Source of the DNA: Thermotogota bacterium
GTDB lineage: Bacteria; Thermotogota; Thermotogae; Petrotogales; Petrotogaceae
Direction of reading: 5' to 3'
DNA: 64,000 nucleotides
Assembly: GCA_051748045.1 (NCBI GenBank)
Contig: JBNJGY010000001.1
Span: 1-64,000 of the forward strand
In this document: positions 3,353-54,970 of the stretch, one piece after another
Position numbering within the stretch: the stretch's first letter is position 1
Layout of the letters: every line of letters begins with the position of its first letter
Translations under genes and position numbers: made by a program
Notes under the pieces: model-generated
Told to the model about the DNA's origin: nothing
What the model saw: only the letters and a program-made list of their open reading frames with translations
Databases searched by the model: none

Positions 3353-4906
3353 ATGTCTGATGAAAAATTCGACAATCTATTAAACGATTTTCGTGAAAAA
3401 GATGAATCTTTAAACTATGGTGGCGGTAAAGATAAGATAGAAAAACAACATAAAAGAGATAAATTAACAGCAAGAGAAAGAATAGATCTTTTATTAGATG
3501 AAGGTTCTTTTGAAGAAATAGATAAGTTTGTTAAACATAGAAGCACATATTTTGGACTAGATAAAAAATCGTTTCCATATGATGGTGTAGTAACTGGATT
3601 TGGTACTATCAACGGCGAAAAGGTTGCAGTTTTCTCACAAGACTTTACAGTTCAAGGCGGATCACTTGGAGAAATGCATGCTAAAAAAATCATGAAAATA
3701 CAAGATTTAGCAATGAAATATGGAATGCCTGTTATAGGAATAAATGATTCTGGTGGTGCTAGAATTCAAGAAGCTATAGATGCTTTATATGGTTATGGAG
3801 GGATTTTCTACAGAAATACAATTGCATCAGGAGTTATTCCTCAAATAACTGTTATTGCTGGTCCTTGTGCAGGAGGAGCTGTTTATTCTCCTGCGATAAC
3901 TGACTTTATAATAATGGTTGATAAAACATCTCAAATGTTTATAACAGGCCCACAAGTTATCAAAGCAGTTACAGGCGAAAATGTAGACAAAGAAAAGCTT
4001 GGTGGAGCATTAGTACATAATTCAAAAAGTGGTGTTGCTCATTTAATTGCCAAAGATGATGATCATGCTATGCAACTTTCAAGAAGATTAATGTCATATA
4101 TCCCTCAAAACAATCTTGATCCAAAGCCAGATATAGATTTTGAAGATTTTGATTTAGATCAAAAAATATACGATATTGTTTCTCCTAACGCTAAAAAATC
4201 ATATGATGTTAGAGAAGTTATAGACACTGTTTTTGATAAAGAATCATTCTTCGAAATTCAACCTCATTTTGCAAAAAACATGGTTGTTGGTTTTTCAAGA
4301 CTTGGAGGTAAATCTGTTGGAATAGTTGCTAACCAGCCAAATATTTTAGCTGGAGCTTTAGACATAAACGCCTCTGATAAAGCTTCAAGATTCATAAGAT
4401 TCTGTGATGCTTTTAATATTCCTGTAGTAACTCTTGTCGACACTCCAGGATTTTTACCAGGAGTTGGTCAAGAGCATGGTGGAATAATAAGACATGGAGC
4501 AAAATTATTATATGCATATTCAGAAGCTAGCGTACCAAAAATTTCTCTTATTTTAAGAAAATCTTATGGTGGAGCTTATATTGCAATGTCCTCACAACAT
4601 TTAGGAGCTGATTTTGTATTTGCTTGGCCAACAGCAGAAATTGCTGTTATGGGACCAGAAGGAGCTGCAAATATTATTTTTGCTAGAGAAATTAAAAATT
4701 CTGAGACTCCTGAAGAAACAAGGCAGAAAAGAATTGAAGAATATAAAGATAGATTTGCTAATCCATATGAAGCTGCAGCGAGAGGTTATATAGAAGATGT
4801 AATAGATCCAATTGAAACTAGACAAAAATTAATGAGTGCATTAAATATGGCTGAAAATAAAGCTGAAGCTAAACCAGCTAAAAAACACGGAAACATTCCT
4901 TTATAA
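3353..4906 (+). CDS. mmdA: Methylmalonyl-CoA decarboxylase alpha subunit / acyl-CoA carboxyltransferase
   Basis: DSGGARIQE, GPCAGGAVYSPA, DTPGFLPG and C-terminal KKHGNIPL. Confidence 0.9.
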   Translation: MSDEKFDNLLNDFREKDESLNYGGGKDKIEKQHKRDKLTARERIDLLLDEGSFEEIDKFVKHRSTYFGLDKKSFPYDGVVTGFGTINGEKVAVFSQDFTVQGGSLGEMHAKKIMKIQDLAMKYGMPVIGINDSGGARIQEAIDALYGYGGIFYRNTIASGVIPQITVIAGPCAGGAVYSPAITDFIIMVDKTSQMFITGPQVIKAVTGENVDKEKLGGALVHNSKSGVAHLIAKDDDHAMQLSRRLMSYIPQNNLDPKPDIDFEDFDLDQKIYDIVSPNAKKSYDVREVIDTVFDKESFFEIQPHFAKNMVVGFSRLGGKSVGIVANQPNILAGALDINASDKASRFIRFCDAFNIPVVTLVDTPGFLPGVGQEHGGIIRHGAKLLYAYSEASVPKISLILRKSYGGAYIAMSSQHLGADFVFAWPTAEIAVMGPEGAANIIFAREIKNSETPEETRQKRIEEYKDRFANPYEAAARGYIEDVIDPIETRQKLMSALNMAENKAEAKPAKKHGNIPL

Positions 4907-48322: not shown

Positions 48323-48397
48323 GGAGCGGATAACGAGACTCGAACCCGCGACCCTCAGCTTGGGAAGCTGATGCTCTACCAACTGAGCTATATCCGC
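48322..48397 (-). tRNA. tRNA-Gly(CCC)
   Basis: GCGGATA acceptor stem, AGCTCAGTTGGTAGAGC D-arm, TCAGC-TTCCCAA-GCTGA anticodon arm, GTTCGA T-loop and encoded CCA; 76 nt. TGATATAAT extended -10 lies just upstream. Confidence 0.96.
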
Positions 48398-50835: not shown

Positions 50836-50852
50836 AACTGGAGTTGATAAAA

Positions 50853-52052
50853 ATGAAAAAATTTTTAATTTTTATTTTATTATTGTTTTCAATCAGTATT
50901 TTTTCTTCTAAATATATTTTCTTTTTTCTTGGAGACGGAATGGGATTAAATCACTTGAAGCTAGCAAATGAATATTCAATAAATCAATATGGAAAAGATT
51001 TGAATTATTTAAAATTAGACAATTTTTCATTATTGGATACTCAATCACTAAGTGGTGTTACTGATTCATCAGCAGCTATTACAGCTATTATGAGCTTAGA
51101 AAAAACTCATAATGATAAAATTAATATAGATAAAAATGGGAATAAACTTAATCCAATTTCATATTATTTTAAAGACATTGGCTATAATATTGCTGTTATA
51201 ACCTCAAATTCAATTGTTGATGCATCTCCTGCAGGAATATACGCCAAAAGTAATAGTAGACAACAATATTCTTCTTTAGCTAATCAACTTTTAGATAGCC
51301 AATTTGACTTATTTATTGGTGGAGGTAGAGCATTTTTATCTGAAGAAGATATTGAAAAAAAAGGATATGATTATAAAACGAAAATTGACATCGCTTCTAT
51401 TTCGGAAAAACCAGAAGTAATTTTAACAGCATATTCTAATAATAAATTGATTAAAGATTCTGGAAATAACTCTTTCTATAAAGATACAGTTGATTATGGA
51501 ATTCAAAAATTTAACGGTGGAAATTTTTTTATTTTTATCGAAGGAGGCAGAATAGATCATGCATCTCATGCGCATGATAGCCTTTCTGTAATTAAAGAGA
51601 CTATTGCTTTTGATGAAAGTTTAGAGCCTGCTTTGAATTTCTATGAACAAAATCCAGAAGAAACTATCATTTTATTTTTAGCAGATCATGAAACTGGAGG
51701 CTTATCTCTTGGAGATGGTTTTATAAACATTAATAACCTTAACTCACAAAAATATTCATATGAATATTTAATAAATATAATAAATAAAAGCGATAATTAT
51801 GAAGATTTTATTAAAAAAACTAACTTATCTTTTTTAACTGAAACTGACTATAACTCTTCCAAGAAAGAAAATAACGTTTCTTATTTTGATGATATAATTC
51901 AAAATTATTTCCGAAAATATAATAATGCCTCAGGTATTAAATGGTCTTCATTTGGTCATACTATTAATAATGTACCTTTGTTTAGCAACGGTATAGATTA
52001 TGATAACTATTTAAAACTAAAAGATATTTTTTGGAAAATAATAAAAAAATGA
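50853..52052 (+). CDS. Alkaline phosphatase family protein
   Basis: Signal peptide; GDGMG, TDSSAA, EGGRIDHASH and ADHETGG. Confidence 0.88.
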   Translation: MKKFLIFILLLFSISIFSSKYIFFFLGDGMGLNHLKLANEYSINQYGKDLNYLKLDNFSLLDTQSLSGVTDSSAAITAIMSLEKTHNDKINIDKNGNKLNPISYYFKDIGYNIAVITSNSIVDASPAGIYAKSNSRQQYSSLANQLLDSQFDLFIGGGRAFLSEEDIEKKGYDYKTKIDIASISEKPEVILTAYSNNKLIKDSGNNSFYKDTVDYGIQKFNGGNFFIFIEGGRIDHASHAHDSLSVIKETIAFDESLEPALNFYEQNPEETIILFLADHETGGLSLGDGFININNLNSQKYSYEYLINIINKSDNYEDFIKKTNLSFLTETDYNSSKKENNVSYFDDIIQNYFRKYNNASGIKWSSFGHTINNVPLFSNGIDYDNYLKLKDIFWKIIKK

Positions 52053-52153
52053 TATCTTTTTCATATTTTTAATAAACATGAAATTTTTTTCATTAAACGG
52101 GCATAAGTATTGTTTGTTACTTTAAATCAATCACAAACAAAGCTAACGGTATT

Positions 52154-52181
52154 TTGCATCTAAATATCTATAGTATATAAT
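52154..52181 (+). promoter_or_regulatory. Sigma70 promoter for candidate sRNA
   Basis: TTGCAT-16 bp-TATAAT. Confidence 0.65.
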
Positions 52182-52187
52182 TTTATT

Positions 52188-52296
52188 GCAGAACACATGG
52201 AAGGTTACCCTCCCTCCTTAAGTGTTTCTGTCCCCGGAAAATTTTTAGTGAATTATTTTTATTCACTTAATTAAAGGCCTTTTTAGGCCTTTTTTT
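52188..52296 (+). ncRNA. Candidate ~110-nt small RNA with anti-SD tract
   Basis: Own promoter, three hairpins, CCCUCCCUCCUU tract and intrinsic terminator aaaggcct-tttt-aggcct plus T-tract. Confidence 0.55.
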
Positions 52297-52360
52297 ATTG
52301 TTTTTTTAGGCAAAATATGATAATATATAAAGGTGTTAAATGACTTTAGGAGGGATTATT

Positions 52361-54970
52361 TTGAAAGCAAAAAAGTTTCCTGGTGATATACTATATTTAT
52401 TTTTAATTTTCTTACTATTACCGTTTGTAATGATACCAAATTGGGTTTATGAATATTCTACACAAAAACATTTAGTTTTCTCTTTTTTAATTACTGGATT
52501 GATGTTTTTTTATTTGTTTAAAAAAGATTATTTAAAAAATTTATCTCTAAAAATACCTCATATTATTTTTGCTCTTTTTGGAGGTACTGTATTTTTATCA
52601 TTAATTTCAGTACAAATAGAAAACCCATATTATCTGAGGTTTTCATTAGAAGTAGCTTTATATACTGTGATTTTGATATTCTTTTCAATTTTAATTAGTA
52701 ATAGATTTGGAAAAGATTTTAGTTTCATAGAAAATGGATTTTTAATCTTTCTAATTACTGGTACTATCATCGCTTTTGATGGTTTGTTGAATAAGTTTTT
52801 AGGTTTCGATCTTTTTTTTGGAAACATTGGTGATCCCTCAGCAAGGATAACTTTAAGAACAACTATAGGAAACCCAAATTTTGTTTCAGATTATTTAGCA
52901 CAAATAATACCAGTCTCAATATATTTTATAATTAAGCCAAAAAATTCTCTTTTTATAAAAATTTACTCTTATATAACTTTATTCATGAGCATATGGGTTG
53001 TTCTTTTTGCTCAGACTCGTTCTGTTTATTTAGGTACTGTTGTAGGAATGGTTTTTGCTTTAGTAGCCTTTTTAATAGCTAAAAAAGATAAAAAAGAACT
53101 AATTTATTTTAAATCAAAGCAATTTATAACATGGTTGCTTTTAATTATTTTCGCTTTTTTATTTTTATTTATGATGTTTAATTTTGATACTCCATTCAAT
53201 AAAGGGGGAGAAGTCGTAGCTACTGATAGATTTGCAGCAATGAACTCTATTTCTTCATGGGATGAAAGATCTTTATCTTGGAATTCTGCAATAAAACAAT
53301 TCGCAGATCCAGATCATCCAAATCATAAATTTATCGGTTCAGGTATAGGGACTTATCCTTTATATGCAATAGAATATATGGCTGAATTACAACATTCAGA
53401 ACCACAAAGGTATTTATACGCATGGAATAATTTTAAAAGAGCACATAATGATTATTTACAGGTTTTAGGAGAAATGGGTATATTAGGTTTTATAACTATT
53501 TCTTTATTAATAATATATTTACTTTATTATTTCTTTAAAACTTTAAGGTCTAAATTACCTCTTGAAAAACTAATTCTCTTTGTTCTTTTAGGTTGGAGTG
53601 TCACTGTAACTGCTGCTCATGCAGGAACAGAATTTGCATTACATATGCACCCTAATCTTTTAATAGCATTATTTATTTTATCAGTTGCCGTATCAGATCA
53701 ATTCAATTCAAAAACAAAAAAATTAAAAATAAAATTTAATCTAAATTATCTTTTAATACCACTTATTATAATTGGAGTAATCACTACTTTCTTAAAAGTG
53801 CAAAGTACTATGTCAGAAGCTTACTTTAAAAAAGCTCAATATCAGTATTCGAAATTTAATGAAATTGATAATGCTTTAAAGAATCAATTCCCTAATATCA
53901 TTGGTAATCTAGAAAATCAATATAACCAATATAAAAACCAGTTAAATAATTATGCACCTGGTTCTAGAGAATTCAATCAAATAACTAACACTTTAAAAGA
54001 AATAGAACAAAAAGTAAAAGAAATAGAACAAGCTCATACTGAATACACTAATGAAGTTAATGATGCTTTTAATAAATCTTTTGACTTATTTTTAAAATCT
54101 TTAGATTCAAATCATACATTCGGTAAATCCATGTTTTATTTAGCTCAATTATTTGTAGAAACACCTTATAGATATAATCAAATAAGTTATGAAGATTTAC
54201 CAGAAATATTCAATTTAAGTAGAGAAGAGTATAGACATGTTGTAGATAATTATGAAGGAAGTTTAGATTTAATGCCTTTTGAAAATAAGGAATTGAGAGA
54301 AAATCTAAGCTCTATTTATGACATAAATATTGAAAGCAATTCTACAAGATCTAAAATTATGCTTATACAAGGAATTTTAGATGAAATATCTTATTTGAAG
54401 ACTTCTTTTATTTACTTTACAGAGAAAAATTCTTATAAATTAATAGCCAAATTGTATTATAATGTTGTGATTCAACTTGAAAAAATGAAAGAGGAATTAC
54501 CAAATAAAACAACTGAGATCAATAATTTGATTAATAAATATTATAATTCTTTTGACCACTGGAATAGAGAAACCGTTAAAGTGCTTCCAGGGGGTTGGAA
54601 TAGATTTCCTGAATGGGAAAACACCTATTCAGAAATCATAGGTATGAATATCAATTTGTTAAAATATTTTGATAATCAAAAAATAATGAACAATATATTT
54701 TATTTTATTGAGCAAGATGGTTGGGCAAATTTTCATATGGCAAATTTAAACAGAGGTATCCCAGATGAATCTTTATCTACTTTACAAGAATTATACTTTA
54801 ACTTAGAAAACACCCAAGTCAAAAAAGATTTAGTAAAACATATAGTCACTTCTTATGAAGATGTTTATGAATACTACAAAAATCTAGATAAAAATTCCAA
54901 TATATATATTAGATATGAAAAAAGAATAAAAGAATTCTTAGACAGTTATAGATATTTCCAAAGAAGATAA
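52361..54970 (+). CDS. O-antigen ligase / O-oligosaccharyltransferase-like (Wzy_C) membrane protein with large soluble C-terminus
   Basis: About 12 TM helices; TIGNPN, QTRS, GSGIG and RAHNDYLQVLGEMG motifs; AGGAGG RBS before TTG 52361. Confidence 0.8.
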   Translation: MKAKKFPGDILYLFLIFLLLPFVMIPNWVYEYSTQKHLVFSFLITGLMFFYLFKKDYLKNLSLKIPHIIFALFGGTVFLSLISVQIENPYYLRFSLEVALYTVILIFFSILISNRFGKDFSFIENGFLIFLITGTIIAFDGLLNKFLGFDLFFGNIGDPSARITLRTTIGNPNFVSDYLAQIIPVSIYFIIKPKNSLFIKIYSYITLFMSIWVVLFAQTRSVYLGTVVGMVFALVAFLIAKKDKKELIYFKSKQFITWLLLIIFAFLFLFMMFNFDTPFNKGGEVVATDRFAAMNSISSWDERSLSWNSAIKQFADPDHPNHKFIGSGIGTYPLYAIEYMAELQHSEPQRYLYAWNNFKRAHNDYLQVLGEMGILGFITISLLIIYLLYYFFKTLRSKLPLEKLILFVLLGWSVTVTAAHAGTEFALHMHPNLLIALFILSVAVSDQFNSKTKKLKIKFNLNYLLIPLIIIGVITTFLKVQSTMSEAYFKKAQYQYSKFNEIDNALKNQFPNIIGNLENQYNQYKNQLNNYAPGSREFNQITNTLKEIEQKVKEIEQAHTEYTNEVNDAFNKSFDLFLKSLDSNHTFGKSMFYLAQLFVETPYRYNQISYEDLPEIFNLSREEYRHVVDNYEGSLDLMPFENKELRENLSSIYDINIESNSTRSKIMLIQGILDEISYLKTSFIYFTEKNSYKLIAKLYYNVVIQLEKMKEELPNKTTEINNLINKYYNSFDHWNRETVKVLPGGWNRFPEWENTYSEIIGMNINLLKYFDNQKIMNNIFYFIEQDGWANFHMANLNRGIPDESLSTLQELYFNLENTQVKKDLVKHIVTSYEDVYEYYKNLDKNSNIYIRYEKRIKEFLDSYRYFQRR

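Follow-up and report, generated by a model that had tools for sequence, protein, structure and literature searches.

The locus at positions 52188-52296 of the window (the whole 64-kb stretch of DNA analysed here) very probably is a genuine, independently conserved and previously undescribed non-coding RNA gene. We identified its anatomy, its conservation, its strand and its single-copy state; it matches no Rfam family, and its sequence is present in RNA libraries. Our preferred reading, which we hold with about even confidence, is that the gene encodes a trans-acting anti-Shine-Dalgarno small RNA (sRNA), possibly assisted by Hfq, whose build resembles that of RsaE/RoxS although it is not homologous to it.

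Regulatory small RNAs known from Thermotogota are, to our knowledge, very few. Our literature search found no paper on an sRNA of this Thermotogota family, and the accessible passages of PMC8632094 do not mention such an RNA. When the whole 64-kb window was searched with Rfam at gathering scores, the single match was a tRNA (48325-48397, minus strand, 70 bits). A permissive search (E <= 10) over 52050-52400 listed 11 matches, all of them noise, the best being L20_leader with 24.0 bits (gathering score 58.7); RsaE/RoxS (RF01820) and 6C (RF01066) are absent from these 11 matches. The original prediction had not recognised the RNA as a member of an Rfam family, and neither search changes this.

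Anatomy of the locus

The RNA gene and its surroundings comprise the following features:

50844-52052, plus strand: alkaline phosphatase gene, the upstream neighbour (Pfam Alk_phosphatase, 133.6 bits)
52078-52093, no strand assigned: palindrome ATGAAATTTTTTTCAT, a member of the ATGAAA-N4-TTTCAT motif
52154-52159 and 52176-52181, plus strand: promoter, with -35 box TTGCAT, 16-nt spacer and -10 box TATAAT (sequence inspection and scan)
52188, plus strand: predicted start, a G, 7 nt 3' of the -10 box
52188-52296, plus strand: whole predicted RNA, about 109 nt (fold z -5.07; covariance model 73.5 bits here and 69-91 bits in 13 relatives)
52188-52196 with 52222-52231, plus strand: stem P1, 9 bp with one bulged U, enclosing the loop 52197-52221
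52189-52196 and 52222-52230, plus strand: arms of P1, CAGAACAC paired to GUGUUUCUG
52203-52218, plus strand: loop motif GGUUACCCUCCCUCCU, a 16-mer and the putative first C-rich anti-SD-like seed (conservation, predicted accessibility)
52208-52219, plus strand: C-rich tract CCCUCCCUCCUU
52231-52239, plus strand: linker UCCCCGGAA, predicted single-stranded, the second C-rich motif, between P1 and hairpin 2
52247-52267, plus strand: hairpin 2, AGUGAAU/AUUCACU
52273-52296, plus strand: intrinsic terminator, with a GC stem at 52273-52292 followed by a U tract to 52296 (8 pairs found by the scan)
52340-54970, plus strand: gene for a Wzy_C membrane protein, downstream and outside the unit (Pfam Wzy_C, 57.3 bits)

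The original prediction had drawn the promoter, the start, the stem, the C-rich tract, the second hairpin and the terminator, and all of them lie where it put them. It had also described a stand-alone unit that is GC-richer than its surroundings, carries no sizeable plus-strand open reading frame (ORF) and ends ahead of the next gene, and these points hold as well. Indeed, the RNA has its own promoter and its own terminator, both conserved; its first 52 nt (52188-52239) have a GC content of 51.9% against 21.8% and 23.0% in the two 500-nt flanks (28.1% in the window, 28.2% in the genome); the single plus-strand ORF has 25 aa (52197-52274); and 44-65 nt separate its end from the next gene, for starts at ATG 52340 or TTG 52361, respectively.

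The promoter scan recovered the same -10 box, as TTTGCA-17-TATAAT with a score of 10/12. Taken alone, the promoter match is weak, because promoter-like matches (8 found) are no commoner than in shuffled sequences (10.2 +/- 2.7). Terminator-like sites are above chance, with 3 found and 0.3 +/- 0.6 in the shuffles. Similarly, the folding energy of the 111-nt RNA, -31.9 kcal/mol, lies well below that of 200 shuffles (-17.5 +/- 2.8; z -5.07), none of which folds as well. In the structure predicted at 37 C, the mean probability of being unpaired is 0.60-0.70 for the loop motif and 0.48-0.89 for the linker.

Conservation in one clade of the family

The window belongs to a genome that we call G000 (genus g1); its relatives are numbered G001 and upwards, and the genera run from g1 to g10. 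A 171-nt BLAST query against 41 related genomes gave matches with E <= 2.8e-8 in 13 genomes besides G000, always as one copy, and no second copy of the RNA gene was found in G000; homologues of the predicted RNA therefore occur in 13 further genomes. A covariance model built on the 60-nt core detected the RNA in 14 of the 26 family genomes, with 69-91 bits and in single copy, which corresponds to six of the ten genera (g1, g5, g6, g7, g8 and g10; no match in g2, g3, g4 and g9). An exact pattern joining both C-rich motifs occurs once per genome in the same 14 and never in reversed controls. Across 151 genomes of the phylum, the best match outside the 14 reached 23.9 bits, and matches of up to 24 bits, inspected as possible distant homologues, were rejected as coding-looking sequence without the C-rich loop. 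A metagenome scan returned 14 loci, 13 of which are this RNA in variants identical to those already known, while the remaining one (L065) is a GC-rich and unrelated match; a scan of public genome contigs added 2 loci carrying the RNA. Judged by the sequences searched, the RNA is confined to one clade of a Thermotogota family.

Of the 63 columns in the core alignment of the 14 genomes, 36 do not vary at all; 11 nt of the loop and 13 nt of stem plus linker are among them. The 11-nt loop sequence UACCCUCCCUC and the 13-nt sequence UCUGUCCCCGGAA, which spans the 3' arm and the linker, are strictly invariant in 14/14 genomes. The full 16-mer of the loop is found in 12 of the 14, the exceptions being G006, which lacks one U, and G001, with one C-to-U change. 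In each of the 14 genomes a promoter precedes the stem by the same distance; its -35/-10 pair is mostly TTGAGA/TTGAAA and TGTATAAT, with spacer sequences that vary. Every homologue ends in a GC-rich hairpin followed by a U run, and the hairpin stems show at least five distinct sequences. Hairpin 2 is present in g1, g8 and g5 (with another sequence in G006), and a short GGAA/UUCC hairpin stands in its place in g6, g7 and g10. Despite these differences, the ten homologue folds examined all have the same layout, the G011 sequence having been folded without its terminator.

Stem P1 is paired in 72 of 72 cells across 8 distinct sequences, with one compensatory change (A-U to U-A) and four one-sided changes (A-U to G-U, C-G to U-G). 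The covariation itself has little statistical weight, since 50 of 500 shuffles score as high as the real alignment; the stem is not proven by covariation alone, and the covariation check that the original prediction proposed gives no significant signal with these 8 sequences. The strand is nevertheless clear. Nine cells of P1 are G-U pairs, which would become A-C or C-A mismatches if read on the minus strand, and it is on the plus strand that the terminator hairpin runs into a U tract; the RNA is therefore encoded on the plus strand.

Mode of action and competing explanations

Under the anti-Shine-Dalgarno (anti-SD) reading, a sigma-70-type promoter would drive a stand-alone RNA of about 109 nt that ends at its own intrinsic terminator. 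Its 9-bp stem would display the loop GGUUACCCUCCCUCCU, while UCCCCGGAA would stay unpaired between this stem and the next hairpin. Both C-rich motifs could then pair with the G-rich SD regions of selected mRNAs, the likely targets being extended sites such as AGGAGGGAGGG or GGAGGGUAAC. Such pairing would block ribosome binding and possibly trigger decay, with Hfq perhaps bound to the U tail. Thus, the RNA probably switches chosen messages off. The genome carries an hfq gene (92.8 bits), and the RNA has the general traits of Hfq-associated sRNAs, namely an independent unit, a terminator with a U tail and hfq in the same genome, Hfq binding itself being predicted.

This build has a close parallel in RsaE/RoxS (RF01820). 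In RsaE, according to the passages of PMC6158497 available, a hairpin loop carries one C-rich motif, the other lies between two stems, and both pair with G-rich SD regions. The same order of a C-rich loop motif, an unpaired C-rich motif between stems and a terminator recurs in the ten homologue folds, as far as RsaE is described in those passages. Moreover, both RNAs are about 100 nt long and have their own promoter and intrinsic terminator. However, RsaE/RoxS belongs to Bacillota, a different phylum, the motif here is CCCUCCCUCC and not the RsaE repeat, and the covariance model of RF01820 gave no match, for which reason we do not count the RNA as an RsaE/RoxS member.

Other C-rich regulators offer looser parallels. 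The 6C RNA of Actinobacteria (RF01066) and the UCCC-motif sRNAs and RNAIII of Staphylococcus carry C-rich hairpin loops that are thought to pair with G-rich mRNA sites. The RNA described here gives no Rfam match to 6C, from which it differs in fold and taxon, and it has one loop motif and one linker motif instead of the several C-rich loops of those RNAs.

To look for targets, we ranked the start regions of G000 (n = 2376, crudely called) by their duplex energy with the loop. The top three of the 2376 are two genes of the alpha-amylase family and one for an alpha-glucan phosphorylase. The alpha-amylase sites, together with a MalF-like site, were rejected as targets, as they are not kept in the five other genera. 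The phosphorylase has a G-rich site in all six genera; yet GGAGGGAGG also occurs in 3 of 5 RNA-less genomes, and the conservation of this site can therefore not be credited to the RNA. In a family-wide search for the complement of the 16-nt loop with up to 3 mismatches, matches were about as frequent as in the reversed control, and the same holds for the frequency of the 9-mer GGGAGGGTA.

The best candidate is AGGAGGGAGGGUA, a 13-nt perfect complement in the leader of the homocitrate synthase gene (TIGR02660, 519.9 bits), found in three genera. The site was examined in G017, G007 and G013 of g6 and in G011 of g10; the search lists the same 16-mer for the three remaining g6 genomes, and the site in g7 has 1 mismatch. 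The predicted duplex, at -27 kcal/mol, is stronger than the 0.01-percentile of 39,996 background windows (-23.1 kcal/mol). A covarying hairpin follows the site, and the start codon lies 40-55 nt away without an SD of its own. Homocitrate synthase was not found in G000, G001, G009 and G006. Five other genomes searched for a glutamate-synthase-like candidate of g6 gave no match, and no target common to all six genera was found. The targets, if any, seem to be lineage-specific, or a common one seems to have been missed. Of the pairing with GGAGG sites that the original prediction proposed, what stands are predicted candidate sites; a target shared by all genera did not emerge, and complementary sites are not above reversed-pattern controls.

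Several observations on G-rich and C-rich sites accompany this search. We noticed a class of 'split' ribosome-binding sites, in which AGGAGGGAGGGURC is followed by a covarying hairpin and by an SD-less start codon 40-60 nt downstream. They occur in the homocitrate synthase leaders of g6, g7 and g10 (L087 501-560, L088, L091 and L092) and at an alanine-racemase-like gene of G008 (L089 and L090, minus strand). Separately, RNA-less genera share the site AAGUGGGAGG(A/U/G)UAA(C/U)C, seen in G020 (L100, G020:C1:1535750-1538750, minus strand, about 499-515), with matches in g9 and g3. In G020, UCCCA comes next, so that GGGAGG and CCUCCC might pair in a hairpin that would sequester the SD ahead of an S1-domain-like ORF.

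The linker 11-mer TGTCCCCGGAA has three copies on contig C125 of G000 (114-124 and 148-158 on the plus strand, 3564-3574 on the minus strand), which form inverted repeats. These copies sit at both ends of the contig, beside gene fragments that by eye look like IS200/RAYT-type transposases. The repeats were set aside as genus-specific: the RNA gene is the sole site of the 11-mer in 11 of the other 13 RNA-bearing genomes, G002 has one extra copy, and single copies are also present in 4 RNA-less genomes. As for the ribosome's own sequence, the 3' region of 16S rRNA was not found in G000 with conserved motifs, and the ribosomal operon seems to be unassembled in this genome of 158 contigs.

It is also possible, if unlikely, that the locus is above all the 3' untranslated end of the phosphatase mRNA, acting in cis as a stabiliser or regulator (for example, by pairing of the C-rich tract with the phosphatase's own SD) or released from that mRNA as a 3'UTR-type sRNA whose function is tied to the phosphatase. 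In 14/14 RNA-bearing genomes, the gene immediately preceding the RNA on its strand is a phosphatase orthologue (E <= 1e-80), with 85-141 nt between its stop codon and the RNA, whereas both outer neighbours vary. The Wzy_C gene is the downstream neighbour only in g1, g8 and g5, and in g6, g7 and g10 this place is taken by a convergent gene for an RsmD-like methyltransferase. Since the downstream neighbour differs, phosphatase and RNA travel as a pair, an association that the original prediction had not noticed. Outside the 14 genomes, an orthologous phosphatase is found in G003 alone, g3, g4 and g9 having paralogues only (the apparent stops in the G021 phosphatase were dismissed as an assembly gap of 4 N). 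The G003 orthologue lies at G003:C71:6-1118 on the minus strand, and its contig stops 5 nt beyond it; genus g2 could thus have the RNA in sequence outside the contig. This co-occurrence is weak evidence, however, because adjacent genes can be lost in one deletion.

Transcription points in the same direction. No convincing terminator was seen between phosphatase and RNA in g6, g7 and g10, and for this reason the RNA may also be the tail of the phosphatase mRNA, the two sharing one terminator region. Four metatranscriptome runs contain small parts of a 2.6-kb stretch around the locus, amounting to 5-8% of the sampled words, so that uncovered parts are uninformative. Two contigs from two runs of two studies match with 0 mismatches, at 52054-52236 (depth 11.6) and 52072-52238 (depth 6.6), and run from just past the phosphatase stop codon into the RNA. 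Pieces of the phosphatase coding sequence have lower word depths (0.5-3.9 per bin), though contig depths cannot rank genes, and two of these pieces amount to short matches within unrelated, larger contigs. The two contigs begin about 115-135 nt 5' of the predicted start and stop at 52236 and 52238, before hairpin 2; they are unstranded, and DNA carry-over is possible. Short RNAs tend to be lost from standard libraries. Read-through from the phosphatase accounts for this coverage no less well than a short RNA does, and of the discrete transcript that the original prediction called for, part is covered by contigs that respect neither its predicted start nor its end.

Against a purely 3'-terminal role, the promoter at a fixed distance from the stem in 14/14 genomes argues for independent transcription. 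In addition, the phosphatase was rejected as a target in cis or in trans: its start regions have ordinary SDs of 4-7 nt without extended complementarity, and the duplex energies scatter from -12 to -28 kcal/mol. The 3'-end explanation and the trans-acting sRNA explanation are partly compatible. DapZ and MicL are 3'UTR-linked sRNAs with their own promoters, and the 3'UTR of icaR contains an anti-SD motif. As in DapZ and MicL, the RNA lies directly behind a same-strand protein gene with which it has a terminator in common, and it may be both an mRNA tail and a separate RNA; its promoter, unlike theirs, lies in the intergenic spacer and not inside the coding sequence. As in the icaR 3'UTR, a C-rich anti-SD tract lies in the 3' region; unlike there, no extended complementarity to the phosphatase's own SD is seen.

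We regard it as quite improbable that the RNA works without mRNA pairing, as a protein-binding RNA, sponge or decoy that titrates a C-rich- or GGA-binding protein. The invariant 11 and 13 nt, within motifs of 16 and 9 nt, exceed a typical seed, no common mRNA target was found, both csrA and hfq are present, and one GGA (in CCGGAA) is invariant, all of which such a role would accommodate. However, that GGA is the only one universally kept, while known CsrA sponges carry many GGA motifs. Moreover, no gene for a candidate C-rich-binding protein is linked to the locus, and the RNA is built like sRNAs that act by pairing, RsaE among them, as described in the passages cited above.

A cis-acting leader, attenuator or riboswitch of the Wzy_C gene, in which the C-rich tract would sequester the ribosome-binding site AGGAGGG after read-through, is very unlikely. 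In G000 the SD of the next gene, AGGAGGG (about 52347-52353), is indeed complementary to the loop, and that gene starts shortly past the terminator. Nevertheless, the next gene is convergent and unrelated in g6, g7 and g10 (9 of 14 genomes), and in g1, g8 and g5 it has its own conserved -10-like box, TGnTAATAT, past the terminator. The RNA has no conserved same-strand downstream gene, and no riboswitch or leader family was matched at threshold in the window. Because the downstream gene differs between genera, a leader or attenuator is excluded as the conserved role, and with it the attenuator that the original prediction had offered as an alternative. The antitoxin that it had also mentioned fares no better: neither a conserved small ORF nor a toxin gene lies nearby, and the 25-aa and 27-aa ORFs, considered as parts of a type I toxin-antitoxin pair, are conserved neither in start nor in frame.

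Finally, it is scarcely credible that the conserved element is an SD plus short ORF on the minus strand, where AAGGAGGGAGGG precedes an ATG and a 12-codon frame in G000 and where a 27-aa ORF exists, or a small protein encoded by the 25-aa ORF of the plus strand, even though the RNA contigs are unstranded: other genera preserve neither start codons nor frames (those of the 25-aa ORF included), a minus-strand reading would turn the nine G-U cells of P1 into A-C or C-A mismatches, every homologue has its U tract 3' of the terminator hairpin on the plus strand, and the scan detected no minus-strand promoter upstream.

A putative operator and the significance of the RNA

The palindrome between the phosphatase gene and the RNA offers a clue to the regulation of the locus. 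The motif ATGAAA-N4-TTTCAT has 12 copies in the genome, 11 of them intergenic, although G000 is 91% coding by crude gene calls; 29 permuted controls gave 0-6 hits, with 0-1 intergenic. Other copies precede the genes for urocanate hydratase, arginine deiminase, GcvT, two PLP aminotransferases and an Opp-like binding protein (examples in G000 are C28:22196, C5:15666, C65:4289, C55:2626/2640 and C12:33744). The palindrome is kept 3' of the phosphatase stop codon in g1, g8 and g5, and in g6, g7 and g10 a version matching it at 14 of 16 positions is found between the -35 and -10 boxes of the RNA promoter; in that version the central 4 nt vary while the half-sites are constant. From its distribution in the sequence, the palindrome is probably the operator of a transcription factor for amino-acid catabolism genes. 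Identity with the ARG box was rejected, the ArgR C-terminal domain being absent from the 99.65%-complete genome.

The shared palindrome in or near the RNA promoter suggests that the transcription factor of this amino-acid catabolism regulon may control the RNA. RsaE offers a further likeness, as it is tied to amino-acid and central metabolism, and the palindrome associated with the promoter here is common to amino-acid catabolism genes. The regulators of RsaE/RoxS, namely Rex, ResD and SrrAB, are not implicated here.

It is tempting to join these strands into one scheme, which we put forward only very tentatively and consider rather doubtful as a whole. The phosphatase and the RNA would be an inherited two-part unit, with the RNA serving both as an mRNA tail and as a separately promoted regulator. 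This unit would be wired to the factor of the ATGAAA-N4-TTTCAT operator that also stands before the arginine deiminase, urocanase, glycine-cleavage and aminotransferase genes, and the 16-nt loop would silence split ribosome-binding sites such as those of the homocitrate synthase and alanine racemase leaders. If this scheme were true, the amino-acid catabolic state would be coupled to biosynthetic genes that consume 2-oxoglutarate.

The locus is a clean and testable candidate, with a single copy, a defined promoter and terminator, two invariant C-rich motifs, an hfq gene in the same genome and a 13-nt candidate site. If its role is confirmed, the RsaE/RoxS design of a C-rich anti-SD regulator would have arisen independently in a deep-branching thermophilic phylum, and the RNA would provide an entry to an uncharacterised regulon of amino-acid catabolism.
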